Shown here: positions 23 to 35,176 of the stretch, piece by piece | Numbering within the stretch: the stretch's first letter is position 1 | Layout: every line of letters begins with the position of its first letter | Assembly: GCA_905178155.1 (NCBI GenBank) | Contig: CAJINV010000002.1 | Location: 967,809-1,031,808 of the forward strand | Length of the DNA: 64,000 bases | Direction: 5' to 3' | From: Amoebophrya sp. A120 | Lineage: Eukaryota; Protista; Dinoflagellata | The notes under the pieces: model-generated | Databases searched by the model: none | Seen by the model: only the letters and a program-made list of their open reading frames with translations | Told to the model about the DNA's origin: nothing | Made by a program: the position numbers and the translations under genes

Positions 23-433
23 TCTACTCCTCAGCGTTTGTTCGCCAGAGAAAGTAAAACTGGACCGAAGAAAGTCACGCTCATCTGCGGGATGAAGATC
101 TTGTTCCCTTTTTGGCGGAGGGCGCTCCTGCTGCAAAAACATTGCCTGCTCCTGCTGGTGCGCCTTTTGCAGCACTAGTTCACGTAGAGATCGTGCCACG
201 GTAGTAGAAGGCCGGTCTACTTGAAAGAACGGGGTACTAGCAACACCATGTTGTCCTCCTGCGTCGAGTTGTGGAGAAGGTTGCTCCGCATCTTTTTGTC
301 CACCTTCCGCGGCCAGAAATTCTTCCAGTTGCTGGCCCGACGGGGGGCGGAATAAACCCGAATTGCTCCTGGTCTTCTCCTTGTCGCTGTCAGCCACGGC
401 GACCACCTCTTGCTCCAGGTCGTGCTGTTCCAC
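23..433 (-). CDS. Host gene A, downstream exon (uncharacterised protein, continues off window)
   Basis: Stop-free frame VEQHDLEQEVVAVADSD...GEQTLRSR; joins in frame to exon 21793-21906 when 434-21792 plus one TCCAC is removed. Confidence 0.75.
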
Positions 434-1018
434 TATCAAATGCAAAAGTGTCTGGGTCTGAAAGTAGAGTGCAGACCTTTGCGATGCGGTTTTTGCCTAG
501 CCCAGACCCGATCTGGGCAACATGCAAGCGCTAGCATCCCAGATTCCGAGCAGGTACTTATCCCGATGCCGAATCCACATTACAAATGCCTTCTTTCTGT
601 AAGAGCCTGCACGATTAATCGACCCCCTTCTCGATACCGAGAAGCCCCCCCGAGTCCGGATTCTGACCGACCTTACCCCCCCACGCCCCCCTTCTCGAAA
701 TCGGGGGGCTTTTTATCGCGAACCCTCCGTCCGAAACTGAACGCCAATGCTACGGCGCATTCTGCGCCATTCCTTTCTTTTTTAAGATTACAGCGCCAGA
801 CGCGGTCTCGCTTCGAGTAGATGCTACTTAGTAGCAAGCGAAACAGACATCGCCCACGCTGTGGCGCTTTTTCTATTTTATGTAGTTTTTCCCGAAAGAG
901 CGCAGTCAGCTGGCGTTTCGCTCGGCTCGCTGGTTTTGCAGCGCTTAGCAAAAAGCAAAGTAGCCCCCTGCTTCTTCTGATGTCGGCCACTATTATCGCT
1001 AAGACGGCCAGGAAGTCG

Positions 1019-1140
1019 TTGGGGGGAATGAAGGGCGAAAAAGTAAATATAAAGTTAATGACTGTAATCCTTAACTATTTAGGATAGATCTGATACATGT
1101 CTCGGATAGATCCGGATTTATCACGGATAGATCTTGGATT
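1019..1140 (+). repeat. Left TIR and subterminal GGAT(A/T)(G/T)ATC repeats of the hAT element
   Basis: TIR followed by ggatagatc/ggatttatc copies; 17-bp tgatacatgtctcggat (1091-1107) perfectly inverted at 20348-20364. Confidence 0.8.
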
Positions 1141-1801
1141 TGAAAGGTCGCACGCCGACTTTTTCGAAAAAAAAACAAAAAACTTTGACCGAATTTGCAT
1201 TGTTTCTCCTTGCATGAACAGTCGATCGCCGTGGGTTAATAAGGGATGCCCACTCCCCCGGATTGATCCCCTCGTGTAGATCTATCCACAGCGCGCGACA
1301 ATTTCTGGACCAGATATGTGATCTTTCGTTTGATCGTGACACGTGATCGGCTATCTTTTTCGCAATGTTGAAGAGTATGATTTGACGGAGTGAAAAAACA
1401 TATGTGTCGGCAATCGAGGCAGCTCTTGTGATGTTTCTACGCCATCTGAACGCGTTTTGGTTTTGCTTATGTCCACTTGCAGTTACATTCATGATAATGA
1501 TGTTGATTGTCAACATAGAAGGAATTCTGACTCAGCATCGAGCTCAAAACAGTGGTCGAAATGTAAATGTACCTCTACAACGTGCATGTCATGACAATGA
1601 GAGGAAAGTAAAAACATCATCAACATTCAACGAAGAGCTTGAGCGCATACGTCTATACCGCACAAGAAACGAAGGATCAACTTAAACCTAAACATACAGC
1701 AGTAGCTGCGTCATAGATAACGTGTCTCTCATTGCTTGTAGTGTCGATCAAGTGTCACGCAAACGCTTTTCCTTCCCATATCGTTATCAACCACGATCAC
1801 A

Positions 1802-2564
1802 TCACTTGGATTTCTTCTTGCTCTTCGGCGCCGAAGATGACGATGAAGAGGCCTTGGCTTTGGACTCCTCCTTGCGCTCCCACTCTCCGTCATCGTTCTT
1901 CACGACACCGACCAAGTCCGGGGCGTTGTTCACAATATCTTCGTCGGCCTGAACGTAATTTTTAATCTTTTTCATTTTGCAACTGAAGTTGAAGTGGATG
2001 CGCAGGGTTTGAGTATCATTTTAATTCTCGTCTCCATTTGGCTTTGCTATACATGAAAGCACGCAGCTCAACTTCATTCATATTGATATTCGTGCATGTC
2101 TACAAATGCTGACACATATGCACAACAAAAAACAGCACCACGAGTGTCACGTTGATGGACAATCCCTTCCGCTTCGGATCCACGTCATCCGGAAGCACGA
2201 AACCCTCCAACTTCACGGCTTTGGGGCCGATCTTCTTCCAGTACGGCACCGCTTTGGGCACCAAGTGGCACGGCGTGTCGTTGGGCGTGAACTTCATCGC
2301 GGACGAGTACTTTTCCATGATCGCGCACATCGCCAACATGTCCGGGTCGTCACCGATGTCGACGCTGTGTTTGCCGTCCATGGACTTCATGACAGGGCCC
2401 TCCATGTTGAGAGCAATGGTCTTCAAGTGGTCCTCGGAATGTTTCGCGTTGACCTTGCGGCCCTCGGCAGCAACCAAGGCCTCGATGGGGATTTTCGGGG
2501 CGTCGACCTTTGTGAACTTCTCCATGAAGTCCGCGATGTCGTCAGACTTCGGGTGGCGGGACAT
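1802..2564 (-). CDS. Cargo gene 3: small uncharacterised protein, 2 exons (about 2140-2564 and 1802-1955)
   Basis: MSRHPKSDDIADFMEKF... with strong GC3 bias; second GC3-rich segment VQADEDIVNNAPDLVGVV...SKKKSK*; AT-rich intervening sequence. Confidence 0.65.
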
Positions 2565-5500
2565 TTTTTTTGGCAAGTGGAGCCGCGAACTACCGGAAGT
2601 TTTTTTCTAGAAAGTGCAATTGCGAAAAAATTGCCGCAGTTACAGTATCAATAAAAGATGCGGAAAGGCAACAGAGTCAAAGCTGTGATGTGTGAATTTT
2701 ATGAACTGCAAGTGGTCAAGCATACAACGCCCTGAAGTATTTGGGTTTGTGCAGTCAGTTGGGGCACGCTTTTGATTTTCTGTTGGCATTTTGATTTTTA
2801 TTTTCCGATCCACTGAGTGATGAGTCTGAGTCTCAGGCTCAAGCTCAACGCAAATTTAAATATTTTGCGTGATCTGATCGCGAAGGTACTTTCGCGCTCT
2901 TCTCATCTTTCAGAAGGGTCTGCCGCTACCCTGACTCTGGCCATTCGTATTCTTGGAACTCTTGTTTCGCTTTTGATTTTCATTTTCATACTACTGCAAA
3001 TGCTACACTAGCTTGAGATGTGGCTGTGCCTGTAGCAGTAGCTGTGCTTGAGCTTGTGCATCAGTCTCCGGCGCCGACAATAAAAGGGAAATCATCAAGA
3101 ATGAACACCAGGTCTTTCAGCTCCAGCGAAGTGGGCAAAAAACATGCAGGCAACGACCGCCGTCATTTGATTCCCCGTAGCAACTAGTGCAACCACTTGA
3201 GTGCATGAATCTGAGTGTGAAGTGACCTCACGCGTCATCAACTGCATCAACGACAACCTCAGCAGGAGCAGCACGGAGATTCTGCTAAAAACAGTCCACG
3301 CTTAATCACGTTCGCGTTGTCATTCAATATCAATCTCAAGTGGAGAAAATAAGTGGTAAATCAGAATGGGCTACATTCCTTGCATTCTGTGTAGTAATCG
3401 ACCTCGACTTTGGTTGGCAGTGATACTTAGGCTATGCAGTAGTGATATCGGACACGCCATGTGATATCAAAAACATTATCATCTCTCCAAAGTGTTTTCA
3501 TATCATTATCATCACTATTTGCTTCGCATGCACATACTCACACTCAACGCTAGCGGTGATGTACTTGGCTAAGGAAGTGTAGCTGGAAAACGATACTGGT
3601 GATCAAAGCGAACCCGAACCGCGACGCGCATGTTTACCAGAAAGACAAACAAGCGACAGCAGTGCAGACCGATGTGACTTCTTCCACGCCAATTGACATG
3701 TAGTGAAGACAGACACTCCGACCGTCACCAGCACCACAAAACAAAGAGTGCGTGAGAATCAAATTCTGTGATCTACAGGCGAATCATAGTTGCAGGGAAT
3801 TTTTTGTATAATCCGGTAGGGGCTTTAAGGTTCAAAAGTCGCTGCGTTTCATATTTTAGATTGCCCCTCCTTGATAAAAGAGAAGAAGGCAGTAGTTCGC
3901 ACGCAGTAGACATGATTGAAATCAACCCCCTACCTTTGCATCGATGCGGAGGCACGTGCACGTAGTGGAAGATGCAGGGCAGATGGAAAATTGTTTGGTT
4001 ACACTGGTAAAGGTGAGCATAGTGGAATCGAAGCTGCGGCAAATTTAAACCTACCGGCACAAACACGGGGAAGGTGCTGGCAGTAAAAAAAGTAGAAGAC
4101 TTCAACATCCACGCACTTCAATTGTATCGAGAGTCATGATTCTTTTAAGTTCTCAGTCGCAGCTATCACGTTCACTTCCCTAGAAACAATCGAAGTAACG
4201 AATTGGCCAGGCTCAGTGCTAGTCTGATTGTTCTTGTGCTCGCTGTTGTTTCTATTACTGTTTGTGATGCTTCGCGTAGTTCCACAATAAATAGAGATAT
4301 TGAAGACATTCTGTGTGAGGCAGAGTTTGATTTTGAAAGTCAAATTCAATGACAACAACCACTCGCACGCTTTTCATCTCGAGAGAAAATTTCATTCTAA
4401 ATGATTTGACTTTCTTTTTTATGTAGAACGACCCGGAAGCTTTTTTTCATGTAGTTCTTCAAATAAAACTATTTTAATTTTTATTTTTCACAATCGATCT
4501 CTTCATAAAATTATAACTATTTTCGTACCTCAACTTCCTGATTTTATTTTCATTTAGATTGACTTTCACAAAAAATCAAATCGAAACAGATTTGCCGACG
4601 AGTTGAAGCATAGAGCTGCGACCTACAGCTTGGAAGCGAAACTCAGCAAGCCGATGATCACGTGGGCAGCCAGTCCTACGCAAGAAATACGCAAACCGTC
4701 ATACCTCGCGACATCATCAACGAGCAGCACAACCACGACCAAGCCGGGCCTCCCCATCCCCTTCGCGATACAGTAAACATTTTGGAGCAGAGAGCAGGTA
4801 TTCAATTTGTTTTATCAGCATGTATCTAGAAACGACATGAGGCGTTGGCGCAAGCGCACTTTCGTTTTCGTTCATATAGCTTGACTCATGACAGTGCGAA
4901 ACAAAAGCTGTTGCGTTTTATCTTTATGCCCTATGATTGTTGCTGTTCTAGTTTCATGCACATCTCAGCTTCCGCGTGCTTCTTGTTTACTATAAAAATG
5001 AAAATAATCGCTATTGTCGTACTGGTACTGCTACTGGTTCTGGATCTGGTAGTCGTAGTGTGGAAGTAAAAATAAACCCAAGTATCACCGCGCGACAGCG
5101 AAAGAGAAGAGGAAGCTCGAGCGATGCTGGGATTCAACAATCAAACTCGAACCGACATGACAGATCTTAGCATCAGTTCCGATATTCATACTTCAATTTA
5201 TAATTTTACTATCCTTGATATCGAAACGATGAAAAAACTATTTATAGCCTGACTACTTCATACGCCCCATCAGGTAAATGCGACCGGGACCTACAGCAAC
5301 TCTTTCAACGGTCATGCACAAATGACGGTGACTATCTCCATCGCAACAGAGGCGCAACGGTGATAGTCGAAACCACAAATCTGATACAGCGACGCGGTGA
5401 TAGGTTGACGCCGTGTCCGAGCAAGTACGAGCGCGGCAACAGCAGCACACGCAAAAACTCCGGACTGGGAAAAGCAGATCCAAATGGCATAGGATACAGG

Positions 5501-5986
5501 TATGAAGCTAAATGCTAACACATTGCCCGCCGATTGTGCTTGAGTCTCGGCTCCTACAGTATTAGTATTTGTATTCTCATCGTACAAAGCAAAACTATAA
5601 TGGAAGTTTTGGCGTGGTTACTATTAGGAAGAAACCGATAAGCAAGGACATCGAATGCAAGGAGCTGAGTAAAGGTTGCAACTGCAAGACCGAGAGGACA
5701 AGCATTGCTCCAGACAGCTGTTTCTAAACCTATTTTTTAATAGAGTTAGAAAGTAGAGAAACGGTCTTCACTGATTCTTGTCGTCTATAATGCTGCTACT
5801 CTTCCGATTAGAACAAGCCTCCTGAGCTTTTCTTTTTAATTTTGATTGTGGTGGTGCTGGTAGTTGTGCGTGTAGTTGTAGACTCTATGTCACTAGCACT
5901 CGCTGTAACTAAAACTATGAAAATAGAAGTAGTTTTTCCTTTCACTTTGTATATTCATTCTCATTCACTTCTCACGTTGAAGTAGT

Positions 5987-8900
5987 TTAGCTAGCCTCCT
6001 CTTCCTCGGAAGACGACGAGTCGGAGTCGGACGAGGAGACATTGTTCGCGTATTCGTCGTCATTATCTCCGTCAAAGAACTCGCTCAAATCATCCTGCAT
6101 CTGCTGGAAGTCACGCTTGTACTTCTTGACGTTGCGCTCGTACGCGAGGTCGTCGGACGCGCGGACGGGCATCTTGACGGTCAAGAACTGCCGGCTGTAC
6201 TCACCAGTGGCCTCGCAGGGACCGGTCGCGCCGGGGCCCATGGGAATCTCGACGTCGACGAGTTTAATCATCTCGGAGAATTCGTCATCCACCGGATTGG
6301 CATCAGTGGACTCCTGGCTGGTCTTCGCGGCACCGGGGGCCACGGTCTTGGCGGTATACTTCCACATGTACTTAACGCACGTGGTCGGACACGGGAACGC
6401 TTTCGCGTAGATCGACTCGTACATACCGCCCAACGACAACGCGTTCTGCGGGTGCCGCAGCTTGTTCAAAACAAACTTGCCGCCATTGTTGATCTCCTCG
6501 TCTCCGAGGTTGTAAAACTGTTTGCAGAGGCGGAACTCCGAACGCAACTTGATGAGGTCGCGCAACTTCCCCGAGGCCGGCTCCACCGCCTCCTTTTTGG
6601 ACTTCTTATCCTTCTTCTTCTCCTTTTTGTCATCCTTCTTGTCTTTCTTCTCCTCATCAATCTGCGGCTTATCCTTCTCGACCTTCGGGTACTTCACGTA
6701 GTCAGCCTTGGCGATCTCGCGGACCTTGAACCACGCCGGACTAACGTTGGATTTGTCCTTCAAGTACTCGATCGTCATTTTGTACAGGCTCTCCTCGTGT
6801 TCCTTGGCCTTCTTGGCATCAGCGGCTTTTTTGATGGCCTTTTCAGCGTCATCACCGGCCTTCACGCGGCGCGCGCTATCCTTGATCAAAGTTCCGATCG
6901 CTTCCTTGTACGGCTCCAAAACGCGGATCGTGTTGATGACGACGTGGTCCGCATCCGGGTCCTTCTTTTCTTCATAGAGCAACGGCTTCTCTTCCAGCTC
7001 GAGCCGGATCGACTCGTACTTCAAGAAATCGCTCAGCTCGATGTAGCGAAAACCGATGTCGCAGATGGTGTCGATGACGTGGTTGGTCGTAGCGATCTCA
7101 GCACCCTGATTATGACGCTGAGTTTTAGTTTTATGTCATGAGTAAGAGGAGTTGGGTTTTGGTTTGTCTCTGTCATCATTTCGGATTAAATCCCAGAAGT
7201 TAAGGCTTTGAAGCCTTAACCTAAGGGCTTGAAACCTTAGCTCAGGTTTTAGAATACGAATACGAAAATCCAAATCAAATGTTGAAGTAGAAGCACATGA
7301 TCCAAAACGCAAAAACGCAAACATGTTATGTAGTACATCAGAAGCAGCAAGGTGCTTCGCCAACTCGGCGCCGTTGTTCACACCAGCGGCGATGCGCTCC
7401 ACCTGGGATTCGTCATCCTGCTTTTGCTTCTTGCTCGGCGGGGATCTGGCCTTCTTTTCGATATCCCGCTTCTCCTTCGCAGAAATCTGCTGCTCCTCGG
7501 ACTGGCCCTGCATGGAGGACTGCGACAGCTTGAAGCTCACCATCTTGGACTTCTTCATCGACTTGGACTTCTTGGTGTCGTCGGCCACGTCCTTATCATC
7601 GTTTTTCTTGTTACCTTTGCCTTTCTTACCCTTTCCTTTCTTACCCATCTTGGCCTTTTTCTTCGCTGGACCATCTTCTTCTTCCTCTTCTTCATCTCCG
7701 GAAGCCTTATCCTTGTCCGCGTTCTTATCGTCGGCGGGGACGACATCCGCGTTGTTGTTGTTAGTGGTATTGTCGGCGTCCTGCATGATGGCGTCACCGG
7801 ATTGATCGACCAGCTCCGACTCATTCTTCGACTCGCCGGTCTCATCGGACGAGTTCTTGTTTTTCTTCGAATCATCGGCGATCGGCTTCGGCTTGACGAT
7901 GCGCTTGCGCCGCGCCATGTCTTCGCTTAACCTCCCATCCTCGGTCAACGGCATCAGGTAGCCCTGCGGCACGTAGTTCTTCATGATGATTTCGCTCCAG
8001 TTCTCACTGGGCTGGTGCCAGGTGGTGATGGTCCAGAACTGCTGCTTTCCGTCGTCGCTGGCGACACGCTGCCCCGCAGACCAACCGTACGTCGGCATGG
8101 GTTCGCCATGACTCTTCGCCACCAGCTCCATGTTCGGCAAGCGGTCGTTGCGCATCAGGTACATGTTGATGATCAGGCCCGGCAGCATTTTTATGCATTG
8201 CAAAAGTATCGCACTATCAGCAACTGCGTTTGCGATGTCTTGCATGACAAACACAGAAACAAGCCAAAATGAAAATCCATTTCTAAATCTAAATGTAGAT
8301 CAAATACAAATTTAAATACGAATTCGAAACTCATGCGCTCATCTCATGCATTATATCGTATCTGCCACTACAACTAGTTACTGGTATGAGTGCGATACTT
8401 TTGCAGTGCATAACCTTCTTGGTGTACGTGTCGTGATCGAGTTGTTGTTTCGGCTCGAGGACCCTCCTGAACACAAAACCGTCCTTGGGCGTCAGGAGCT
8501 TCACGGACGCCGGCGTTATATTTTCCCAGTTTTTCTCTTCTTCCGCTTCCGACAGGTCCATGTCATCCTCCTTCACTTCCTTCTCCTTCTTGGGCGGCGC
8601 CGTGATCCGCTTCTTGTAGTCGGAGAAGTTCTGATACAGCTGGACGATCTTCTTACGGACCTCGTTGCTCGGGTTCTTGTCGCGCATCTGGGCCGGCTTG
8701 AGATCCAGGCCCAAATCCTTCTCGACTTCGTTGATGTGACCGTTGGCGTTCGCTTGGCACAAGCGGCACAAGTTCAGCTGGTCCTGCTGCAGCATCAACT
8801 TTTCCGTGCCAAAGGCCTGGGAGATGCTGTGCTTGGTGCCGTACTTTATTTCGATGTAGCAGGCACACCACAGGTCGCACGCCTGGCTACCGATGTCGAG

Positions 8901-10466
8901 GCCCGTGAATTTAGCGTATTCGTTCTGTAGATGTAGATGTAGTTGGAGATGTGCAATTGCATGCGTAATCAGCATAGACATAGAAGCAACGTCGCGAGTG
9001 TTGTGACTGAAAAAAAAGCACAAACTAAAACAAAACAAAAACTATATAACTGAGAATAGGAGTGCGAGATTCTAGCTCTACGTCTACCTCATGCTCATCG
9101 TCGTCCTTATTACTCTGTAGCCTACAGCTTCCAATACCAATTCCTAAATAAAATCATAATCAAAATCAACTGGAACTGACGCTCATGCTAAAAAAGAAAA
9201 ATATACTTTAAACTGGGGAAACAGGTTCGCGTGCTGATCCGGATGCAACTCGCAATGGATGGTGGTACCAGTCATCGTCCACGGCTCGAAGATTTCGCGC
9301 TTCACGATGTGCGGCGTCTGTTCCACACAAACACCGGTCGTGATGCCTTCCACGCGGCGCTGGGCGTACTCCAAGATGCCACACGGGATCGCCATCGCCT
9401 CCTGGCACTGTTTCTTGTACGTGGCAAAGGATTCCTTCAACGGCTTCAGCACATGCAGTTGTTCAAAAAACTGCACAGTTTTTAATTTTTTGATTTCTTT
9501 GTGCTTGTATCGGATATGCATTTGCTTTTGCTCTCTACATGCGTGCGCGTCTGAAACGTTATCACTACTCTTTCGAAAAAGCAAAACGAACACCGAAGTC
9601 AAAGTCAAAGTATAACAGCATATGCATGACAGATTTGCATTTCAACTTGAGACGAAAAACAAAATCATAACCATTACCATAAGCAGCAAAAGTAAATAGA
9701 TAAAAAATGCAGTCGGTTTAAGAAATCCATCTCCCATATTGCGAATCTGGATAAATCTTTCGACCAACGCAACATGGTCGCTCAGGGAGTGGCGCAGAGT
9801 GACGCACTGTTTTGTTTTGATATTCATAATCTTGATCTTTGTATTGCATGAAAATAGAATCATTGATGAAAAATCAATGGCATGGCATGTATACTAAGAT
9901 GTATGCAAGACAAACACGCAACCTATCCTATATAGAAAAGAAAATGAAAATCGCGCTATACTTTCAGGCTCAGCGGCTCGACGGTCGCGAGTCCGACGTT
10001 GCCGAAAGCCTCGCGACTGTGGTTACCAGACAAGCGCCCGCACTTGTTGTCAGCAGTGGCGGAGGGACCGTTGTCGACCAAAATCATTCCTGAGGGATAT
10101 AATAGTTTGAATCTCATGCGTGATGATAGTGCAAAGCTAAAGAGTTTCATATGCATTACAAATGTTCACGAAAGACCAAAAAATCAAAAAAAAAGCTGTA
10201 CTCCAATCATTTGCCGTGTATCTTCCGATCCGGAGGGCGGTCTGTAATTTGAGTACTTGAAAGGGATTACAGTCCCTGTTTAGTTTGTGTTTCTTCGTGA
10301 CGTCCAAGATAGCCTGGGTCAACGGCCGCACAAACACACCATGCTCATCCGGAATTTGGAACGTGTTGATGGTGAAGTTGCCGATCTCGGTGGTGGTTTT
10401 TTGACGATTGTCATAGAGGAGGACCTCCTTTTCCGTCTGTGCGACGGTCACGGAGGTGTGCGCCAT
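5987..10466 (-). CDS. Cargo gene 2: multi-exon protein with N-terminal ParB/Sulfiredoxin-like motif and K/D/E-rich C-terminus
   Basis: GC3-rich exons at about 10200-10466, 9963-10093, 9210-9470, 8413-8925, 7355-8190, 5987-7105; motif ILVD...GRLSGNHSREAFGNVGLATVEP resembles ParB GxH(R)xxA; domain call is by eye. Confidence 0.6.
8192..8412. mobile_element. Degenerate introner inside cargo gene 2
   Basis: IR tatgcattgcaaaagtatcgcac ... gtgcgatacttttgcagtgcata; TSD not recognisable. Confidence 0.7.
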
Positions 10467-10658
10467 CCTGTGGTCGGAGAGTGTGTGGTGCTCTCCGACA
10501 AGTTGAAAACGACTACCAGAAGTAGATGATTTGAAGCGAAAATTGTCTCTCAGCTACGGGCTTTGGGATGATGGTGAAGGTTGAATTGGCATGAAATCAA
10601 TGTGAATTATCCTCGCGAGTTGTTCACTTTGCGATCAAATCTGATGATTTTCAGAAGA

Positions 10659-10831
10659 TGCAAAAATCATCATTTTGGATTAAATCCCAGAAGTTAAGGT
10701 TTTGAAACCTTAACCTAAGGTTTTGAAACCTTAGGCTAAGGTTTCAAAACCTTAGGTTAAGGTTTCAAAACCTTAGGCTAAGGTTTCAAAACCTTAACTT
10801 CTGGGATTTAATCCAAAATGATGATTTTGCA
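10659..10831. repeat. Foldback palindrome with five 16-bp quasi-palindromic units at 21-bp period
   Basis: Arms tgcaaaa(a)tcatcattttggattaaatcccagaagtt; units aaggttttgaaacctt at 10696 and 10717, inverted aaggtttcaaaacctt at 10738, 10759, 10780; degenerate half copy at about 7173-7250. Confidence 0.9.
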
Positions 10832-11531
10832 ACTCTTTCAAAGTCATCATTTCTCATCCAAAAAAAGATCTCCGACAACACTTTCAAAGCAACTACACAT
10901 CAACAAAAACCACCGACGAAGGAACGAAAGTCACTACTTTTGCTCTCAAAAAAGGTGTCAAAGAGCAGAGCTTTCCTTTGCATTTGATCAAAAAAGTGTC
11001 TGGAACGCCAGCAATTATCTGCATAAAAAACACGGCGGCGCCCTCCTCGTTGTCTCTCGCAGAGCAACCGCAACGCCATATATTAGAGATTTTCCAGCTC
11101 GTTGAAGTAGCTCTAGGCGCTGGAGTGCAAAGCCTATTGCTTCTCAATATTCATTCTGCACATAGAAACCCAAAGAAAAGCTCGAAGAAATCAGAAAGAA
11201 AAGCTCTAAGAAATCAGAAAGAGAAGCGCACTATTTTAGCTGGAATACTTTTGCACTTGCCGCAGTTTCTACATTATACAGCGCAGGAACCTTTTGCGAA
11301 AAGCGTCTTTCTTGATCGTTTTTTCCAATAGCTGCAACAGCTTACTCCGCAGCTTCTATCTGTAGTTATACTTCTTTCGCTGTAGATTTGCGTTCATTTT
11401 TATTCCTTATTATATTCCTAATACATAGTCAGCGCAATAACAATAAGAGCACCAGTTCAAGTAGGATTAAGAGTAGTGATGTGGAAAGTGCAAACGCGCT
11501 ACAGGTGCAAACACAGAGACATATGCAAGCT

Positions 11532-13528
11532 CTACCGCCAAGGCTCACCGTCTGAGTCATCATCTCCGCTGCTGCTTCCAAAACTTGAATCACTTTCCAA
11601 CTCCGAATCGCTTCCGTCGTCACCTGCCGCTGAGCCCGCTTCGAACACTTGCTTTTTGAACTCCTGGCACACTTCCGCTGCTTTCTGCTTTTGCGCCGGT
11701 GTCGGCATAACAAACTTTTTGGGAAGTTTGTCCTTTGCGCCCACGATGTTTGCCTTGATGTAGTTGCACATGTCCAAAGACACCTGCAACCGCGAAGATT
11801 TTGTAAAGCACCGCCGAGATGCTTTTTTTTTCGTCTTTAATTCGCCGGCACCACTCCACTGCAGATAGGATGTCTTCTTTGTGCTTCGTAAGCACGACCC
11901 CCGCCACACATTCGTCTCCGGATTGTACGTGGCGTACCCGTTGTACGCCTTCCACAGGTTGCTTATCATCATTTCTGGTTGTGCATCGATCCGGTTGAAC
12001 GTCTTCCACTTCTTATCCCGCTGCCGCTTATTCAACATTTGCTTGCGCTGCCGAGCAACGAGGACGTCGTCGTCTTTTTTGTTTTCTCCTTCGTCGTCGC
12101 CAGGCAACAAGCCCTGCAGAAGATCGGCCTTTTTTGTTTTTCGTTTTTTCTTCAGTTCCAACAAAGACCACGTTTCCCGCTTCCCGTATTCTATCAACGC
12201 GAGCTCCTCCGTCTGCATCTCATCCACGAGAGTCTCCCCGTCTTGCGCCACGTACTTCTGGTCCACACTGCTCTTCCATTTCGCTGACTCGTCGTAGTAG
12301 ATAGAAAATCCGCCATCCGAATCACTATCATCATGTCGGACAGAAAAACCGGAAAAGTCAGCACTTTTCAACCGCAGTGTGAGTTTATGTTCGTCTGTCA
12401 CCACGCCGCCGTTGATGTCTACGAACGTGGTGGGCCGTCGCTTCCGGGAAAGGTTGTTCACATTCACGGCGCAGTCAACCATAACTGTTTCCCTCCTGTT
12501 CGGGTCCAACTCGGTTTCCTCTTCCTTGATCTCCACTTCCACTCCGCCGATACTGATGTCGATGTTGTTTTTGCCATGCAACAAGAGCTGCTTTGGCACC
12601 GCAGCAGAAGAAGATGATGATGACACAGCGGCAGTCGAGTTGTTCATCGGACGCACATCTTCATCTTCTTCGTCTTCCTCCAGAATAGGCGGCAGCAAAG
12701 TGGTATGAAGATGCGAGCTGTTCGCGTTCTGCTTCTTCTTGTTCCGAGTTTTATTTTTCAAAATCGTATCTACATCCAGATCGGTTTCGTTGTCTTCCCG
12801 CACGTCCTCGTCAGGATTTTTGCTGATAATATTCGCTTCTTTTTTACTTCCGGCCGCGTGCGACGCCGCTACCACCGCCCCACTCTTGTTAACGTCTTGT
12901 TCTTTTGAAGATGCTGCTTTCTGCGTTTTCTTTTTCCCTTTTTGCTTGTTGTTTTCACCTTCGTCTCCTTCGGGCAAAAACTCCGCGCTGCCATCATTTT
13001 GCTCTTCCCCGGACGTAGTTTTATCCGCTTGCTCTTTCGGAGGATACCAGGCGGCGTATCTGTAGATTAGTTCCGACAGCCGCATTTTTTGCTCTGCATC
13101 GACGTAGTATTCTCCAGTACAATCAACGTCGTCGACTGCTACTAGGTGCGCGTCATTATTGCAGGAGTCGACGCACAGCCACTGCGTTTCGATCTTGGGT
13201 GCATCGGGCCGAAGTTTGAAGTAGATCAAAGTACCCGGCACGATGTCAGTCTCCGACATGCACAATGCCGGCCACTCTGCTTTCCTCTTTGTCTTAGCGC
13301 CTGTTATTGCCCGGCCCGGATTGTAAAAGTTCTCCTTGCCGAAGTGCTTCTGAATCACATGACACACGTCACTGAAAACGATCATCGGCGAGGAAGTGAA
13401 ATACTTCTTGGCTTGTCCGCTCCTCCGCGCGTGAGGGCAGCACACCTTGTTGCGCGCGTCCTCAAATTGCTCAAAGGCTGCCAGGTAATTGTTGCGGTTG
13501 AAGCCCCTGGAGTTTTGTACTGCGTTTC
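11532..13528 (-). CDS. Large exon/ORF in the hAT element: C-terminal extension of the transposase gene or a separate cargo gene
   Basis: 637-aa ORF, frame open up to a stop at 13527-13529; same strand, about 200 bp downstream of the last transposase exon; splice junction not resolved. Confidence 0.6.
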
Positions 13529-13730
13529 AATGTTGATCATTTTCATTTAGCTCTCGCTCATTATCAGTCACGTCGATGATTTTACATATGCACTAGCATG
13601 CAAGTGGAAAACTAGATCTAATTGCAAAAGTGTAAGTCATAGCAAATGTAAATCTAGATGACAACAGAAATTGAAATCGAAATGAAAATTAAAATTTTTT
13701 AAAAATAAAAAGCCAGCAGCTTTTTATTTT

Positions 13731-16700
13731 TTATTTTTCCCAGTACCTTGCCGACGCCAACTCCATCCCTAAATTTCCAGTGTTGACCTCGCGGTGTATC
13801 TCCGTCGACGTCGAGTTCAGTTTCTCGCAGTCCTGACTCGAAGGGAAGAGTGCGGACAGCAGCGGTTTGAGGTCGGCCACAAAGGCCGGCGACCAATTCG
13901 GTATTTGATCCGGTTCAGGCCCGTCTATCGTCGCGTCGTCATCAGCCGCTCGTTGTAGTTCACCGGGAAAATCTTGGAAAAAGTCGAAGGAAATTCTGTC
14001 GAGTTTGCCCTGTTTCCCAAGGCGGATCAGATCCTGTGCTGTAGCCCGCACCTCGCCGCCCCTCATGAGGCCGTGCAACCGGTGTGGAAAGCTCCGTAAG
14101 GGTTCCTGCCGATGAAACAGGTCGTCGATAATGCGAAGAAACGTCAAGCAGCACCGCCCGAAGGCATCCTTCGCGTTCCCCAGTTGCATCGTGGTCAGCG
14201 ACAAGCGGTTCCACAAGCGGGCTTTCTCGATCGGCTTGACACAGTGGCGGGCCAACTCGAAACTATCCGCCCCAGAAGTCGACAAGCCGTGCGACCGCAT
14301 CACGTCGGCAGAGCAGTCGAGGACGACACTATGCTAATGAAAAAGTAATCTTCAGGCTCGCTTGCGTGAAGCTAAAGGTAAGGCTACGGAGAAAATCTAA
14401 ATCTCGAAAATCTAAATGCAAATCACAATGTAAATGATAACGAAGTAGAAGCTGTGGCTGTGCATGCACTTACGCTAATAGTTCCACACATACTTATAAT
14501 TTGTATATTCATTTGCATTAACGATAAGCAGATGCAGACGCAGATCCAGAGCGTCTGCGACTGCGTGGTCGTCCAGGAATGTAATGCAGAAGCAGCAGTG
14601 CCACCACTGCGCCACATTCTATTTCTCTTTAAATTCGTAATCGTATTTCTATTTGTATTGCAATTTCTATTTCCTGTAATGCAGAAGCAGATCCTATAGA
14701 TAAAGACCAGCCATGATTATGCCTTACCTTTAGACTTTACTTCTACCTGAAGACTCATTCTTCAAATCACATCGCCGAAGGGGAGCGGGAAGGTTGCAGC
14801 GTGATAAAGATCCAGGGAGCTCTTCAGTGCGGTAATGCAAGTCCACCACGGTTCGCTGGTAACTGCAGTCCAGGCGCGTCTGATTAAACTACTTTTGTTC
14901 TTCTGATATTTCTTCTCCCGGTCTGCTGCTAGTCGTGGAATATTCACCGCCAGAATGGGCTTCTGTTTCATCAGCCCACTCACAGTATTCGCCAAGCTGA
15001 GCCAGCGGGTGCGCACGTAGTGGCTCACTTTTTTTGGTGCATCCTGCACTTCGTCGTCGTGATTGAATTCTGTTTTGCCAGCATCTTTCCGCAACTGCAG
15101 ACGATTGCCCGACTCAGTCGCTTCGTGGTATGCCCGCAGTTCGTCTCCTTTCAAAGCCTTGCCGTCGAGAATGACCTTTCCCTCGCGCATGAACTCCTCC
15201 ACGTCCTGCATCACAACCTCCTGGTCTCGCGCCCGCGCGTCCCGCCGCTCTTTTTGTTTTCGCACATCACCGACAGGAATAATGCCTTCACGATCTTCCC
15301 GCGGTGCACGCTTGGGAAGCTCCTTCTTCGTGAGAAACATACTATTAATGACTTTACTCACTGCTGTTACTGTCTTCTCGATTTTCTTGCCATAGGCGGC
15401 AGAGATGCACTGCAGGGCGGTTTTTCCCAAATTCGACATCTCTATGCATTGCAAAAATGTAAATCAAAGTACCGCAGTAGTCCTAGCATTACACACAGCA
15501 TATGGCTATGGATACGGTGTCCACGCTTCTTTTTGTTTCTCTTTCACTTTGTCATGCGCGATCGCGTTCGCAACTAATAGTAGCGATACTTTGACTTGTG
15601 GTTTTGCACAGGATAATATGATGGAGCTGGCAAAAAATCGACGTGCGTGACCAGTTCGGTTCTGCCGGTCGCTCTACCACCCGCCGCGTCTTGTTTTCGC
15701 AGCGAAGAGCTTCGGTCAGGTACACCGTATTGTCTCCCAGTTTGACCATGTCTGATCCACAATCGGACGCTGTGATGCAAGCAGGCCTTGACGGGGGGAG
15801 GTACCCGCCATACTCCATGTTGCTGTAGACCCCGGGCAGGGGTAGCCCCACCTTCCACGCCTGCTCCCAGTATTCTCCGAAAATTAACCATCCCCATCCA
15901 AAGTGCACGAAGAAGTAAATCATCAATTTTCCATTTTTGCATGACAAACACAAAACGCGCAACATGTTTTGCATGACAAACACAGCATGGAGCTGGTGAC
16001 GAATAGGGATTGTTAATTTTCAAGGAATAAGTATATGTCGTCGACTACCGACAGAAACCCGCCCTCTGTTCCTATCGGCTCCAACGAGAAGTCATACATC
16101 ACCACATCTTGCCCGTTGTTGATGGACCTGAATAAGTACACCTTGGCGCTGAGCTGCTTCACGTCGCCGAAAGGGGTACTGTCCGGCACGATCCTCGTTA
16201 CTATTTTCGGTGGCCTGTTGGGATTTTGGCCCGGATCAGTCGCCACTCCATTGCTCGGATCTGAGCAAGGTGGGTAAACTAACTGTCGGTCTCCGTCCCA
16301 GTTCAAATGACTCGACTCAATTCGTTCCCGCCTTCGCATCTCCTCATCTGTTTCTCCACCTTCTTGTTCTACCAGCTCCAAACTATTAGTGTTACTGCTC
16401 GCCGACAAAAGAGCGCTTTTTGCGGCACTGCTCAAATTCTTCTTGTTTAATGTGAAAACTGGAAGAACAGACTCGCTCACCTTGTAGCTCAAGCCCTTTT
16501 TCTTCGGCGGATCGTCGTCCATCATGGTCGTATCAACTGCAGCTAGTTGTGTGTGCTGCTGTCCGGATTCGGAATCTGTATTGCTGTTTTTGAGATGATG
16601 GTGGCGGCTGCTGTTTGGAGCCCGTGTTGGCGCGCTTGTCAGTTGTGTGCTGTCGTTATTGTTTGTCGGCAAGCTGTTGCTCTGGCTTTGTTGGGCAGCT

Positions 16701-18811
16701 AGATCTTGTGTATCTGCGTCCTGCAATACATGTGCAAAACCGTACCGCTTCTTCTGGTCAGCTGCTCTTGCTACTTTTACCATGCCGGGAGTTGCATAAA
16801 AATTCAAAATCTTCATCCGTATGATAAATCGCAGTGCGTCTCGGTACAGAAATTCGTCCCGTTTGGCCTTCATCCTGTACTTCGCCTTCGCGCGAGCGAT
16901 CATCATTTTCAAAACCGTCCTCATGTCCATCGCCTCTGCGGCGGATGTTCCGGACCGCGCCGATACTATCGCGTCAGCGTAGAGGTGCGGGCTCATGTCT
17001 GGCAACGCTTCAAAAGCTTGCAGTAGTTCTTCGTCGTACGCCTCGACTACCGCGCTCTCGTCTTCCTCGTCAGACTGGTCCAGCAACGCATAGTCATTTT
17101 CATCATAATCGTCCTCCGATGATGATGAGCAAGAAGCGTCTCCCGGATCTTGCTGTTTGTTTTTCTTCTTCTTGTTTTGCAGTTGCTGTTTGCTTCCTGC
17201 CTTTCCACTGGTGATTGCCGCTTTCGTTTTTTTACTACTTTTTCCAAGCTGTTTGCGTTGCGGTTTCGTGAGCTTGTTTTTCACTGAGCTCGCGCTCCGG
17301 ATGTTGTCATCATTGAGGCTGACACTACCTGAATCCGAGTGCGAATCTTGTCTATTAAAATTCCACAAGTCACCGACATCGGTCTCGTGAAGCTGCAGCT
17401 TGTTGCCATCGGTCGGCCCTTTGTAGTTTTTCATTGTATTTTTCACCGAAGAAGAAGAACTGAAGTTGAAGCTTGAGCTTGGCGACGTTTTATTTGGTAC
17501 GAACGGAAGGCCTGCATTTCCACTTGCCATTTTTTCCTCATGTTCGTCGAAGTCTTCTTCTTCATCGTACGCCTTTTGTCTAATGCCGAGTTCTGCAAAA
17601 GCGTTTCGATACGGTACGAGGGAGCTGCTGGAATTATTGTTGTTGTGCGCGGAACCGCGCGCGCGGACTTTTTGTTTTTTCATTTGCTTCCGAACCTCCT
17701 TGCGTTTTTTTTTCTCCTCTTCCTTTCTTTTTTGTATCACGGCTACCGGCAAATCGTCACCCAAGATGTCATCTTCCTCGTCTTCGCAACTGGAACTAGA
17801 CGAACTGCTTGAAGCCACCTCTTCGCCCAGTCTCGAAGACGAAGAACCAACTACACCTGCGCTGCGTGTTCCTGCATGTACGGAAGCAGCTCCAGCACTA
17901 CTGCTCGTCGCTGGGTTGAAGAAGTTGCTTGCATGCGGCACCGCCTGCTGTTGTATGGAAGTAGTAGCTCTCTTTGGCTCCGCTCCCACCTCCATGTCAA
18001 TGTCCATGTCCTCAACCACTTGGGTCTCCTGGTCTCCAGCCTTTCGCTTCTTTTGTTCTTGCGCTGCTACATCTTCAGCACCTCCGCGTTTGGCGATGTC
18101 TGCTTTTCGTTTCAAAGCCTTTTGCTCTTGTCGGTCTTTCTTTCGTTGCATTCGCTCACTTCGTTCTTCAGCAATCGCCTGCAGCAATGCATTTCGTAAA
18201 TTTTGATCCGAAACTGCGATGTCGCGATTGTCGATCATCCGGCTATCGAGATCATCTTTCACCACCCCCGCAGCCATCAAGACCTGTCTTGCGCGTTGGC
18301 CGCCCGTTCCACGACCCGAACCAACGAGCCACGCGTTCCGGAGCCACTTTCTTTTCTTCGATGCGGATGCTGGTAGTGTTGGAAATCGGACTTCTGGCTC
18401 GTTGGGATCACCGCCGCCTATATCTCCGCTGTCTTGCATCTTTTTTGCAAGGTCTGCTATTCGGGCCTCTTCTTCCTCTTCCTTCATCTTTTTTTTGCTC
18501 ATGTACTTTTTCTTTACTTTCTCGTCCGCCGGAACGTCGTCGGGCATGAAGCGACTGTAGTAGATGTTTTTCACAAAGTCCTGAAACGAAACGCCCTTCT
18601 TTTGTTCATTCTTCCAGCTTACACCTAAAGACTGCTTGGACGGTATTGTTTTCCGGGCAGATGTTTTTTCTAACACCTTTTCTGTTTTTCCGTTCTCTAC
18701 TGCCCACTCCAATAGCCGAATAAGATCTGCAACCGTTTTGCACTGATCCATGCGCTCCTGCAGCCCCTTCGTGGGGCCGATGGTGATTATTTCTTTCTTC
18801 GTCCGCGCCAT
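13731..18811 (-). CDS. hAT-family DDE transposase, very large, intron-split
   Basis: Exons about 16015-18811, 15616-15925, 14765-15442, 13740-14330. Motifs in correct order: RIVPDST..QLSAKVY (D 16181-16183), TASDCGSDMVK (D 15762-15764), CQLH (15621-15632), VRTRWLS (TRW 15002-15010), LLSALFPSSQDCEKLNS (E 13824-13826). Confidence 0.8.
15443..15615. mobile_element. Degenerate introner inside the transposase gene, just after the CxxH motif
   Basis: tatgcattgcaaaa ... ttttgcacaggata; flanks atctc/atatg. Confidence 0.7.
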
Positions 18812-20340
18812 AGCAGTAGCGACGAGACGAAGACAACTAACCCAACGCCAAACAGCTTACGAAATAAGCAGGGCAAAGCCGAGGAGGATGTGGATGCGGA
18901 TGTGCACGCGGATGGCACCAGGTAAAAACATTTTTTCCTTTTTGATATTAATATTTGTATTGCTGTTACTTCGTTTTGTTATTAGTTTGATTTTCAAAAT
19001 TTAGAAATTGAAATAGTAATAGAATAGAGATATGAGTAGTGTCAAAGTGAAAGCTCATACGCATAATCATACACGTTCTGCCTCAGCTTTGATGCTGAGG
19101 CTCAAGGTTAGTTCTAGTTTTCCTTGTGTTGGTGCTTGTAGTAGTTGTGTTAGTTCTGGTTCTCAAAGGAGTGCGTATTCGTATGCGAAAACGAAATCGA
19201 AAACGAAATCCAAATCAGAGTTTCAAAATAGAAATACTAATAAGAATAAGCTCAGCAATAAAATGTTTTATTTTCATTTTCAATTACAAGATCAACAAAA
19301 TCAAAATAGAAATACCAAAAAAACGCAGGTTGCTAAAAGTGAATGAAGCGATGACGAGTAACGGAAGTTTTAGCACGAGCAAAGTTGGACACTCAAACGA
19401 TTATCGCTACCTATAGCAGTGCAAGCTCGATGACGAAAGCAACACGCTGGAGGACCTGCTTTTATGACTGTTTCGATTTCGAGAAGCTTTGCAATGATGA
19501 AAAGGTAGAAAACCAAAACAGATGAATAGGCAAAACGATAGTGGCGACTTTGAATTTGATTCACAGCGATTTGATGCGATTTGATTTGTATTGCAGCGAT
19601 ACCTGCAACCACGCACACTCACACTCCCAAACGACACGGCGACGCTTGAACCCAATTGCAATTTGTGTCATGGCGTTTTATTGTTTTACTTTTGGTTTGT
19701 GCGAAAAGTACTACCCGCTCTTTTGCGCTCTATCTCAAAATCGAAACCTACTGGCTTCCCAACGACAAAAACAACCGACACCAACCAAAACAAAAAACAG
19801 CCTTCAATGTACCCAAATCAAATGCACAAGCAGCGCCACGCTATGACGAGCTTCGACTTTACCTTTAGGAACATCAAATCAAAAATAATACGACGAGGGG
19901 ACTCAGCAACCACCTACTAGCTCGGGGCGTATCAATGCAACTTGTGCAATTCCTACTATTTCGCTTTTTGTGTCGTTTCTGTTTTGCATAAACAAAAAAA
20001 ATGCACAGCAACTATCGTTCATTGAGTTCCTTTTCATCTTGCTCATCGTTTTACTTTCATTTTCTTGGTGTTGTTGAAACAAATTCGACCATCACACCGC
20101 CGCAACACCACGCCGAGTTGTAACGTCGCCACACTGTTTTGCATCGCTTCCACCTACCTCTGATCTTCGACAACATTACGACTGTGGTTTGAAAAGTATT
20201 AATTTTGAACAGAAGTCTCCATGTTTTTCGCGTCTCGGAGCAGACCATCAAGTTCAGACCGACCATCCGAAACAACACCACAACGCTTCGCCACCGACCT
20301 CCGACAAGATGAAAAAAACAACGAAATAATTTTTCAACTT

Positions 20341-20456
20341 TAGATTAATCCGAGACATGTATCAAATTAATCCGAGAATGTACCGGATTTATCCGACATA
20401 GTTAAGGACTACAATCATTAACTTTATATTTACTATTCCCTCTTCATTCCCCCTAA
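20341..20456 (-). repeat. Right subterminal repeats and TIR of the hAT element
   Basis: attaatccg/atttatccg copies then the reverse complement of the left TIR. Confidence 0.8.
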
Positions 20457-20694
20457 GGAAGTCGCTTATGAACGGACAAAATACAAATTGGCCCCAGTGC
20501 GTGCATAAGTATAGCGCCACTAGAATCAATGAAACAAGCGACCTACGAGAATGGCGCAGCGAATGGGGCTCCGCCCGCTTTCAATTTTTCCAGCCCCGGA
20601 CGGGGTAGAAGCAAGCTGCACTTTCACCGGGGGCATCGGGGCTTTTGCGCAAACCTACCCGCTCTATACAGGCGGCCTTTTTCCACCCAAGCGG

Positions 20695-20950
20695 CTGGGC
20701 GGAGAAAAGCCGTCTTGGAAATTCAAAAAATTTGCAATTTTCAAGCGGGCTTGTTTCCAAAGACTTGCTCGAGGAAAAGCTTTCGCGTGCGGTCGGGTGG
20801 AGAAAACAAAGCCCGCGTGAAAATTCAAAACATTTGGAATTTCCAAGCGGGACTAAACTTTCTCCAAAGACGTGCTCGGGAAAGATTCTTCTCGACCCAG
20901 TCCATGGGGAAAAACCCGGGCGGAAATTCAAAAAGTTAAAGTTTTCGACT
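20695..20950 (+). repeat. Three imperfect repeats of about 100 bp within the TAA element
   Basis: gaaattcaaaa...aatttt/ccaagcggg recurring near 20719, 20819, 20924. Confidence 0.6.
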
Positions 20951-21792
20951 TCCAGGGTGGTTCTTCTTCACCCGGGCCCCTCGGGAGTCGCTTTTTGGAG
21001 AGCAGTTGTAGCGCAGCTACTTCGCAATAGAAACACCCTGCGCGCACGCAGTAAGACAACAGATCTCGCCCCAAGTAGATCCCGGAAATCTTTTTCGCAA
21101 CCTGCGGCCCCTTTTTCAATCGGGCCTTCTTTTATACGCTTCTCTCGAGTGTTGTCCTCTCTATGGGGGACGCGTCGCTCTCTACGACAAAAAAAACCAA
21201 TAAAGCGCAGCAACCGCTTGCTTGCGCCCCTGGCCAATTGCTGTCGGCCTCTTATTTGGCATTGTGTGGCGGGGCTTTAGAATTCAAACTTTTTCGCACC
21301 TATTCCTTTTGTGGTGCGCTTCTTGCGGATCGCAGTTTTTCATTTACGACTCCGTTCTCTTTCTTGTTGGTGGTGGTGTGGTTTCTAAAAAGTCAGAACC
21401 TTTTTAGAAACCACACCAAGAAGAAGAGCTTCTGCTCCACTAAGAAGAGAAAAAAGTAAAACCGCACTACCACCCCGCGCCCGTATTTTCTGAATTTGCC
21501 ATCTTTGGCGCGGTGGACGGGGGAGTTCCGATTTTGCATTTTGGATTTTTGAAGTCCGATTTTGGATCGGAGTAAATCGCTGAGGTTTTGCGACGGCCGG
21601 ATGACCGACCGCACCTACCCCCCCCTTCTCGGTATCGAGAAGGGGGTCGATTAATCGTACGGGCTCTAACAGGAAGTGGGGCCACCTTATTTTTCTGACC
21701 AACATGCAGCATGGCAGATTTTGTTCGATGATGTAGAATTTGCATCACAAATTCGAATCCATCCAGACCCAGATCGATATCTGCAATGCATA

Positions 21793-21906
21793 TCCACATC
21801 ACTGTTAATACCATGGTCCACGGCGTCCTCAGAAATCGCCTGGTGCTCCATGTGCTTCAAAAAATACCGCATGTCCTCGTCCGTCCTCTCCTCCGAGATG
21901 GGAAGG
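21793..21906 (-). CDS. Host gene A, middle exon
   Basis: LPISEERTDEDMRYFLKHMEHQAISEDAVDHGINSDV, in frame with both neighbouring exons. Confidence 0.75.
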
Positions 21907-23035
21907 TACTAACTTGAAATTTGTCTGCAGCTAAAAAAATCAAAATTTTTGGTAGTGCAGTTCTTGTTCTTCTCTTCTCGCGGCCCGGACTGCAGCCCGC
22001 TTGCGAGCGCTGCGGACTCCGTGCTGGGGAACTTGGCCGAGGTGTTGCGCTCCATTCCTGCGTCATTTGCTCGAAGGTCCCCCACGCGCTTGATTTGCTA
22101 GCTCCACACGGAAATGCGGCAACAGGTAGGGGCTTCCGACTGCCATTTTTCGGGGAAGTTTCGCACCTAAGATAACAACATGACGCGAGCCTCCGAGAGG
22201 TGCTTGGGCGCAGAGCCCCTTCCCCCAAAAGTGGCAATTTGTAATGCGCGTTTCGCATTACAAATGGCCTTCTTTTATGACCCGTCTTGGGCTCGCTCTC
22301 CGGGCCAGGTCACAAATCTGAGCCCCTGGATCAGCAGAATGCCGTGCTGTGAGGGTTCAGATTTTTGATGCAAAACGTGGCTCCGCGAAAAAACTCTGCA
22401 CCTCGGCAACGAGGTCGCCAAGTGGAGGTGCAGAGTTTTTTGGCGCGAGGGGGGGAAAGTGGGGCAGATAGCTCGTGTTTGTCTGCGCCGCCAAAAAACT
22501 CTGCACCTCCGAAATTGGCCTCCAGATGAGGTGTCCTCGGACACCTCTTCGGAGCCCTCCCGAGTCGCGGACCTCCGGGGCGACAAATTTTGGCCGCCCT
22601 TTTCGCATTGCCCCGACCTGAATCGAGCTCAATTTGCAGGCAGAAGCCTGCAACTTGAGCTCATCCCTGAGTCGACCTCCTCCGAGGCCGCGAGGTTTGA
22701 ACCAAAAGCGAGCCTCTGCTTCAGCAAATTCAACTCATTCCCAAACAAGACACTCACTAGGTAAATCGTCAGGAATCAGGAGGGAGTGCGGGAACTTGAA
22801 GACCTACAACTGCGAACCCGGGTGGACGACGTCCACCGATAGCGAAGCACCGAGTCCCCCGGTGGCTGAGCTGTCTCCTCTGCTTCGTCCGCCGAGGCCG
22901 TGCCGGAATACCTGGCCTGCCCATTTCCTTGATTTCGTTTCATTGTGAAAAAAAAGAAACACACAAGAAGGTGCCCGAAAATGTAGGATGCAAAAATTTT
23001 GATTTTTTTAGCTGCAGACATTTTTCAGTTTAGTA
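21907..23035. mobile_element. 1.13-kb TIR element with a 38-bp flanking direct repeat, in host gene A
   Basis: 45-bp TIR tactaa(ct/ac)tgaaa(tt/aa)tgtctgcagctaaaaaaatcaaaatttttg; DR 21869-21906 vs 23036-23073 (37/38 identical) abutting both TIRs. Confidence 0.85.
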
Positions 23036-34765: not shown

Positions 34766-35176
34766 TTTTGTTCATCACATGGTAGTTGAAAAGAAGTCGT
34801 GTCGTCTTCTGCTTGCATCAAGAGGAGATGCAGCCAAAAAGACAACTTGTGAAAGTAGCACGCGGCACCAGTCGCGGTTGCAAACGAAAAAACCCGGTAA
34901 TCTTTTTGGTTTTCATCCACTAGTACTTCTCGCAGAGGCAGATGCGGGACCAAAGAGGTAGTGGAGCTCCTGGAGAAAACAACTCTCATCTCTTTATTTT
35001 CCTGTCGTCCGCGTAAGTTCTTTCGGGCATGACGGCTTAGACACGCAAAAAAAAAAGAGACCCTGAGGCTGTGAGACCCAAACCAGCGAAACACGACGGC
35101 AGCGTGGTTTTTTTGTGTTTCGAATGACGGGAAAAAAATAAGCATACCGTCGTGATTTCGATTTGTGTGTTTTTTT

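Follow-up and report, generated by a model that had tools for sequence, protein, structure and literature searches.

Results

A 19.4-kb element with three predicted genes

We analyzed a 64-kb window of the genome of Amoebophrya sp. A120 (contig CAJINV010000002.1, positions 967,809 to 1,031,808; positions below count from the first letter of this window). The stretch from 1019 to 20456 is bounded by terminal inverted repeats (TIRs) and a target-site duplication (TSD) and holds three predicted genes on the minus strand, one for a hAT-like transposase and two that we refer to as gene B and gene C (Table 1). We consider it quite probably an autonomous-type cut-and-paste transposon from an Amoebophrya hAT lineage that has diverged deeply, and gene B its likely fixed companion. 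A first-pass annotation had proposed a giant TIR- and TSD-bounded element with a hAT-like transposase in a dinoflagellate-like parasite, and the ends, the relatives in Amoebophrya AT5 and the top ranking of Hermes in fold comparisons support this proposal. Gene models were predicted from sequence, and every splice junction is a prediction.

The 8-bp sequence GGAAGTCG abuts both ends and occurs nowhere else on the plus strand of the window, as expected for the perfect 8-bp TSD described earlier; two random 8-mers from the window match by chance with a probability of ~5e-5. Because an A precedes both copies, a 9-bp duplication (1010-1018 and 20456-20464) is also possible if a gap is accepted where the TIR begins, at its tip, and because there is a single insertion the length cannot be fixed between 8 and 9 bp. 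The two arms of the annotated ~60-bp TIRs match at 53 of 59 aligned positions, with a single gap, and together with the subterminal part the identity is 85% over 92 bp. The subterminal repeats also hold up: GGATWKATC has eight matches in the window, six of them within 270 bp of the left end, one at the right end and one internal, so that seven lie within 270 bp of an end, and a looser pattern adds two to three matches at the right end.

For copy number, we used sequencing run X1, which is possibly the source sample, so that its support for the junctions is not independent. Three error-free contigs cover 740-10692, 10799-15899 and 15870-20739 at a depth of 40-43, equal to that of other single-locus contigs, and cross both element ends unbranched, supporting the junctions; positions 10693-10798, which lie in a palindrome, are unbridged by any listed X1 contig. 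The left-end bin is wholly explained by two contigs, and the right-end bin contains a flanking high-copy repeat and is not separable. No second TIR-bounded copy and no empty site were seen in the X1 contigs. Thus, the further TIR-bounded copies that the first-pass annotation had looked to did not appear, and its notion of a family holds at the protein level across species but not at the nucleotide level in X1, where the element is single-copy at a threshold of at least 80% identity.

Table 1 Predicted features of the element and its insertion site (window coordinates)
Feature	Position	Strand	Remarks
Left TSD, GGAAGTCG	1011..1018	+	9-bp version 1010-1018 fits too
Left TIR	1019..1078	+	53/59 identical to right arm
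Left subterminal GGATWKATC-type repeats	1082..1290		6 matches
Gene C, predicted	1802..2564	-	2 exons (2564-2151, 1986-1802), 199 aa; GC3 0.70-0.86
Gene B, predicted	5987..10466	-	7 exons, 1,080 aa; homologues: AT5 g11511 and g13352, second half of each
Degenerate 16-bp inverted repeats, two copies	7202..7238		Gene B intron 6
Host-family introner within gene B	8194..8413	-	
Palindrome with five tandem 16-bp inverted repeats	10628..10863		Repeats at 10696-10795, period 21; 230 bp upstream of gene B
hAT-like transposase gene, predicted	11532..18811	-	5 exons, 2,071-2,077 aa
Transposase exons	~18811-16031, 15872-15617, 15444-14808, 14331-13747, 13506-11532	-	
Transposase motif sites	D 16183, D 15764, CxxH 15632-15621, W 15004, E 13826		
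Right subterminal repeats	20342..20396		
Right TIR	20398..20456	-	
Right TSD, GGAAGTCG	20457..20464	+	
Outer inverted repeat of ~1.65-kb repeat interrupted by element	593..21676		Arms 593-644 / 21625-21676, 92% over 52 bp
Host introner split by insertions; predicted 21,364-nt host intron	433..21797	-	Flanking exons join in frame

The transposase and its relatives

A phmmer search of 1.84 billion representatives with transposase exon 4 gave two matches, the unnamed protein P0001 (45% identity, E 7.5e-42) and P0002 (Amoebophrya AT5 g13352, 41% identity), and a profile search added P0003 (AT5 g11511), making two AT5 gene models and P0001 in total. The core is ~33-37% identical to these relatives. 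The two AT5 models share only 28-34% identity with each other, and there are at least two divergent AT5 paralogues plus a third sequence at 84% identity.

The transposase frame is stop-free from 18811 to 11532 under either of two splice rules. The first-pass annotation had placed this gene at 13731-18811; removal of a GT-AG intron (13746-13507) carries the frame on into the exon 11532-13506, which both AT5 models match, and makes the gene 2.2 kb longer. P0001 reads into an intron at the corresponding position. Because 11532-13506 is the last transposase exon, the element has three predicted genes and not four: of the three to four co-oriented genes reported before, three stand and the fourth is this exon. 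Their co-orientation is not distinctive, since the gene-like ones among 19 listed open reading frames (ORFs) of at least 200 amino acids (aa) beyond 20500 are also on the minus strand, and unidirectional gene clusters are typical of Amoebophrya (PMC7789003).

The window is rich in repeated introns with inverted arms (introners), which are known from Amoebophrya A25 and A120 (PMC7789003); together with the AT5 relatives, these point to an introner-bearing Amoebophrya. Of the four transposase introns, three begin with TTAT, and one splice rule removes them, as does a second rule 6 nt wider; the fourth is the GT-AG intron. The introner-type introns at 15873-16030, 15445-15616 and 14332-14807, as well as the one at 8194-8413 in gene B, are all in frame under both rules, and with the wider rule the spacing at the three sites in the transposase equals that in the AT5 relatives. 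Introner insertion may add two codons each, or splicing may take more than the repeat arms. A candidate mini-exon at ~14590-14525 was dropped, as the relatives align without it.

D, D, CxxH, RW and E follow one another in the hAT order that had been annotated (with TRW for RW): D877, D962, C1006, H1009 and RW1156 are kept in all three relatives and E1388 in two of three, the P0002 model being without that stretch. The first catalytic D, however, is best placed at 16183 in a D-x-T-P-F-G block common to the three relatives; an alternative placement in an MYDF block was rejected because that block is not conserved, and a catalytic E in the last exon was rejected because the region matches the relatives without an E motif. 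The D-D, D-H, H-W and W-E spacings are 85, 47, 147 and 232 residues versus 68, 20, 51 and 253 in Hermes (PMC6027215, PMC5225508). Across the transposase and its relatives, W precedes E by 232-234 residues, near the 253 of Hermes (PMC6027215) and unlike the Mutator-like element (MULE) Muta1, in which W lies 18 residues before E (W401/E419; PMC5225508). Outside this core, ~870 aa precede the first D and ~680 aa follow the E. The N-terminal part contains a glycine-rich block (18263-18358; W-x-R...LVG-x-G-x-GT-x-x-QRA) of which 53-62% is kept in all relatives, and the N-terminus around it is low-complexity. After the catalytic core, a small beta-rich block (13119-13330) is kept in AT5 g13352 (35%); our impression is that it may be a Tudor/SH3-like reader domain, with no match in Pfam.

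Fold comparisons and probable assignment to hAT

The first-pass annotation had suggested comparing the fold with Hermes. In Foldseek, Hermes ranked first (and also 4, 7 and 49) among 350,542 chains with a full-length match, and in VIA it was first of 48,161 (Z 8.5, root-mean-square deviation 8.9, 229 aligned residues, model 14-445 on Hermes 175-437), being the sole entry with Z of at least 8 and followed by Z 7.2. The ranking thus agreed with the suggestion, but the modeled fold was that of the intron-free core of P0001 and not of the window protein, and the scores were below significance. Neither score is significant alone; the evidence, which is supportive, is that a family named beforehand topped both lists of this modeled core. 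In the ESM Atlas, a FAM200/GTF2IRD2 cluster appeared at rank 10 (0.86), which we take as a lead only. FAM200 and GTF2IRD2 derive from hAT.

The element shares with hATs (Hermes, Ac and Buster-type) the 8-bp TSD, TIRs with subterminal repeats, the D-D-CxxH-RW-E order and, probably, a helical insertion between the second D and the E; the best fold match of its 45%-identical relative is to Hermes. It differs from them in its length of 19.4 kb, its three genes, its transposase of ~2,070 aa and its ends, TT(A/G)GGG.

Several observations weigh against the assignment. The D2-to-H and H-to-W spacings are far longer than in Hermes. The P0001 core model, which begins with three strands followed by a helix, is of low confidence (mean predicted local distance difference test (pLDDT) 48, predicted template modeling score 0.39), its Foldseek match to Hermes has an E of 0.57, and the VIA score barely exceeds the background quoted by the tool (7-8, and up to 13 for helical models). 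The left end starts with TTGGG, unlike the hAT consensus (T/C)A(A/G)NG; the right end, T-TAGGG, fits this consensus if the duplication is 9 bp (PMC6027215). No BED finger was found in the transposase with Pfam on exons, P0001 and P0002. Pfam scans of sequence pieces in sets of 13, 17, 9 and 4, with exons, P0001 and P0002 among them, and of eight alignment members gave no hAT, ParB or methyltransferase family; PHROG and NCBIfam scans gave weak unrelated matches only, none of them hAT or ParB; and PDB sequence searches gave no hAT or ParB match, just a kelch-repeat artefact. Finally, all splice junctions in the element genes are predicted ones.

Word-index searches with single exons found no homologue, and there was no match in viral contigs (queried with transposase exon 4, gene B, gene C and the TIR pattern), in metagenome contigs and phage records or in Rfam, and nothing at E 0.001 in a viral fold library. 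Four of nine listed sequencing runs were compared with the window. In run X8, which we guess to be RNA and for which there was no control stretch, a 227-bp piece matches exactly at 19960-20186, and the blank over the genes carries no weight as evidence. The raw RNA runs X4 and X5 have 0 and 1 reads over the stretch; the organism is not represented in them at this stretch, and they are therefore uninformative on expression.

Gene B, the adjacent repeat array and gene C

Spliced gene B matches P0002 at 1568-2471 and P0003 at 1613-2137 (E 6e-40 and 1.5e-40). Both AT5 models continue past the transposase into this gene-B-like region, exon by exon and in unchanged order. Because these models are so divergent from each other, the transposase-then-B layout is old, spanning at least three divergent loci, and because B follows the transposase in both of them, gene B is likely a fixed accessory gene of the element rather than host cargo. 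A search of proteins 299-2000 aa long gave no host homologue of gene B, which is weak evidence by the tool's own account.

Gene C offers less. No homologue was found in hidden Markov model (HMM) libraries, the ESM Atlas, viral contigs or the AT5 models, the large protein searches not having been applied to it; ESM Atlas matches to short phage fragments shared few features and were taken as noise. The frames of genes B and C also close in the splice models, so that all three frames are intact under one splice rule. The GC content at third codon positions (GC3) is 0.70-0.86 in genes B and C, 0.54-0.70 in four correctly framed transposase exons and 0.45-0.63 in seven flanking ORFs. Gene C may be a second accessory gene or captured cargo. 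Between genes B and C, 3.4 kb (2600-5986) are without a long ORF.

These data bear on the earlier idea of a cargo-mobilising element. In the form considered here, a hAT transposon collects variable host genes in the manner of Pandoravirus hATs or Pack-MULEs, and genes B and C are captured. Such a history would suit the lack of a gene C match in either AT5 model, the GC3 of B and C above that of the transposase and flanks, which may point to a different history, and the ORF-poor 3.4 kb between them. Nevertheless, gene B accompanies the transposase in two AT5 loci of such low mutual identity, and the searches described above gave no host homologue for either B or C; we regard the cargo explanation as improbable. 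The element likely represents a transposon lineage of unusual size with several genes, not a vehicle for genes of the host.

We also considered that the transposase and gene B may be one spliced gene of ~3,100 aa and the element a giant with a single polyprotein. Weighing against two separate genes, the AT5 gene models fuse the two into single ORFs of 2,480 and 2,570 aa, a fusion that may be a gene-calling artefact or real; moreover, the two lie in tandem in one orientation, and introns here are commonly non-canonical. On the other hand, the transposase frame ends at the 11532 stop, which an acidic tail precedes, the start Met of gene B aligns to Met1613 of P0003, and 1.07 kb including the repeat array separates the two, leaving the single-gene structure with a slim chance, about that of the cargo explanation.

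As for the function of gene B as a separate accessory gene, NRD..PF and SG(N/S)H(S/T) blocks in its N-terminus are kept in all three sequences and presumably recall a ParB/Srx domain, an assumption of ours that is unconfirmed. HMM scans of gene B gave no ParB match and its modeled fold (pLDDT 39) no informative match, results that neither show nor exclude ParB. HMM scans also gave no match to a DNA methyltransferase or 2-oxoglutarate-oxygenase domain in gene B (the C-terminal 575 aa were not folded). Five 16-bp palindromes lie in tandem 230 bp upstream of the gene B ATG, and tandem inverted repeats beside an accessory gene, a feature of PAG3- and Sola1-type elements, are therefore present. The 16-bp repeat has eight matches in the window versus 1.7 expected (none of 100 shuffles reached eight), and seven of the eight lie in two clusters inside the element. 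We tentatively entertain, as a possibility somewhat short of an even chance, that gene B has a ParB-like N-terminal domain which binds the five repeats and regulates or protects the element.

Separately, a 1,828-bp single-depth X1 contig from another locus resembles the array at 10750-10818, with 9 differences in 69 bp; it may be a diverged second family member.

The insertion site

The element interrupts a ~1.65-kb repeat, for which no TSD was seen and which is itself nested between two introner arms. In this introner family, eight of the nine listed minus arms have a plus arm 240-330 bp away; for the minus arm at 441, the partner is a degenerate arm near 21765-21797, 21 kb off. Taking the inserts out leaves 281 bp of the introner, and the host exons on its two sides then read as 180 codons without a stop. 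The longest introns listed by Farhat et al. (PMC7789003) are 35 and 90 kb. Because the element interrupts both the introner and the small repeat, the insertion is younger than the introner family and that repeat; because the element genes themselves hold introners, the lineage has been resident in the genome for some time.

The ends of the outer repeat, TAAGAG and TTAGAG, resemble the TT(A/G)GGG start of the large element, and the outer repeat may be a non-autonomous hAT-type repeat. Nearby, at 21869-23073, host exon sequence is directly duplicated over 38 bp (21869-21906 and 23036-23073) on either side of a 1.13-kb insert whose inverted ends measure 45 bp (21907-21951 and 22991-23035). This insert may be an intron created by an element whose duplication is exceptionally long. 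Elsewhere in the window are GC-rich tandem arrays with units of 19 bp and ~114 bp (35092-36906) and a 1,236-aa host ORF of Q/N/M-rich low complexity and prion-like composition (58043-61753).

Recent mobility is not shown: the element is single-copy, its TIR arms are 10% diverged, and its genes carry at least four introner-type introns. The same observations, together with the intact frames, are what would be expected of an old, immobilised or domesticated hAT-derived locus retained for a host function. We consider such a locus highly improbable, given that the TSD is perfect and the TIRs complete, that the insertion postdates the small repeat and an introner family specific to the species, and that there are at least two divergent AT5 paralogues and the 84%-identical third sequence.

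Introners and the element are physically associated, with four introners within element genes and one hosting the element. The arms of introners, with their 3-5-nt direct repeats, are unlike the TIR and 8-bp TSD of the element (PMC7789003). Because introner ends and duplication length differ in this way, we rejected the element transposase as introner mobiliser, a role that appears unlikely on these grounds.

Discussion

A MULE with a 9-bp TSD hardly competes as an explanation, because although a 9-bp duplication fits and MULEs make 8-9-bp TSDs and have CxxH and a conserved W in common with hATs (PMC5225508), the RW here lies 232 aa ahead of the E with a probable long helical insertion, which is the hAT layout, and Hermes topped both fold searches.

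If the element is a diverged hAT transposon, our working model, drawn from hAT biochemistry, is that the transposase would bind the TIRs and subterminal repeats, excise the 19.4-kb unit and insert it with an 8-bp staggered cut. From the anatomy of the locus, this copy would have inserted into a small repeat that itself lies within an introner, and splicing of a 21.4-kb intron likely allows the host gene to survive. Gene B is likely of use to the element and may bind the repeat array, although we hold this last step loosely. A bolder version, which we think rather unlikely, is that a hAT lineage invisible to standard domain searches has grown to 19 kb with a ParB-like protein and a parS-like array, that the module of ParB and inverted repeats proposed for the Plavaka and Sola giants of algae is a general device of self-regulation or anti-silencing which hATs of alveolate parasites have acquired as well, and that the element hides in an introner spliced as a 21-kb intron.

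Among known hATs, a close parallel is offered by the S0-S2 elements of Pandoravirus celtis, which also carry a transposase and further genes between TIRs; they are viral, 7-10 kb long and have a BED-containing transposase and variable cargo (bioRxiv 10.1101/500207), whereas the element described here is nuclear and intron-rich and its companion gene is kept across species. ToxhAT/ToxTA, at 14 kb, is likewise a large TIR element with extra genes and was formerly called a hAT (PMC12506042). Because it has been reclassified as Tc1/Mariner-type on the basis of its TA duplication (PMC12506042), we rejected it as a hAT precedent.

Giant multi-gene DNA transposons of 16-30 kb have been described for EnSpm/Plavaka, Sola, KDZ and Mutator. 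Examples in algae are Sola1-1_Ec32 of Ectocarpus (21.5 kb), with a gene for a 1,104-aa protein that combines ParB and a methyltransferase (PMC12477816), Plavaka of Bostrychia (17.4-19.1 kb), in which PAG3 has a ParB-like domain and adjoins tandem inverted repeats (bioRxiv 2025.02.11.637652), and EnSpm of Chondrus (16-20 kb; PMC6431247). The element resembles these algal giants in size, in fixed accessory genes, in an accessory protein of ~1,100 aa and in an inverted-repeat array next to the accessory gene. It differs in its transposase superfamily, and gene B is likened to their accessory genes by description, its ParB or modifying domains being unconfirmed.

The suggestion that the element is possibly undescribed is consistent with a direct literature search, which found no published description. 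Within the largely open-access literature covered, no paper on Amoebophrya, hAT and transposons turned up, nor did any hAT of 19 kb that has an accessory gene as a fixed component. The Amoebophrya genome survey reports no transposase in A120 and two putative ones in A25 (PMC7789003), and no DNA transposons are reported for the genome of a Karlodinium parasite (PMC12005148).

Genome surveys can thus miss intact, very divergent DDE transposases. In view of this, the mobiliser of TIR elements in Amoebophrya genomes is again in question, though the ends of this element do not match those of introners. The nesting predicts a 21.4-kb non-canonical intron, which would test the reach of introner splicing. 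If gene B is ParB-like, the protein and the five-repeat array would allow a direct test of whether an accessory protein binds the transposon that encodes it. The superfamilies with giant multi-gene transposons would come to include hAT, given a 19-kb member whose companion gene persists across species.

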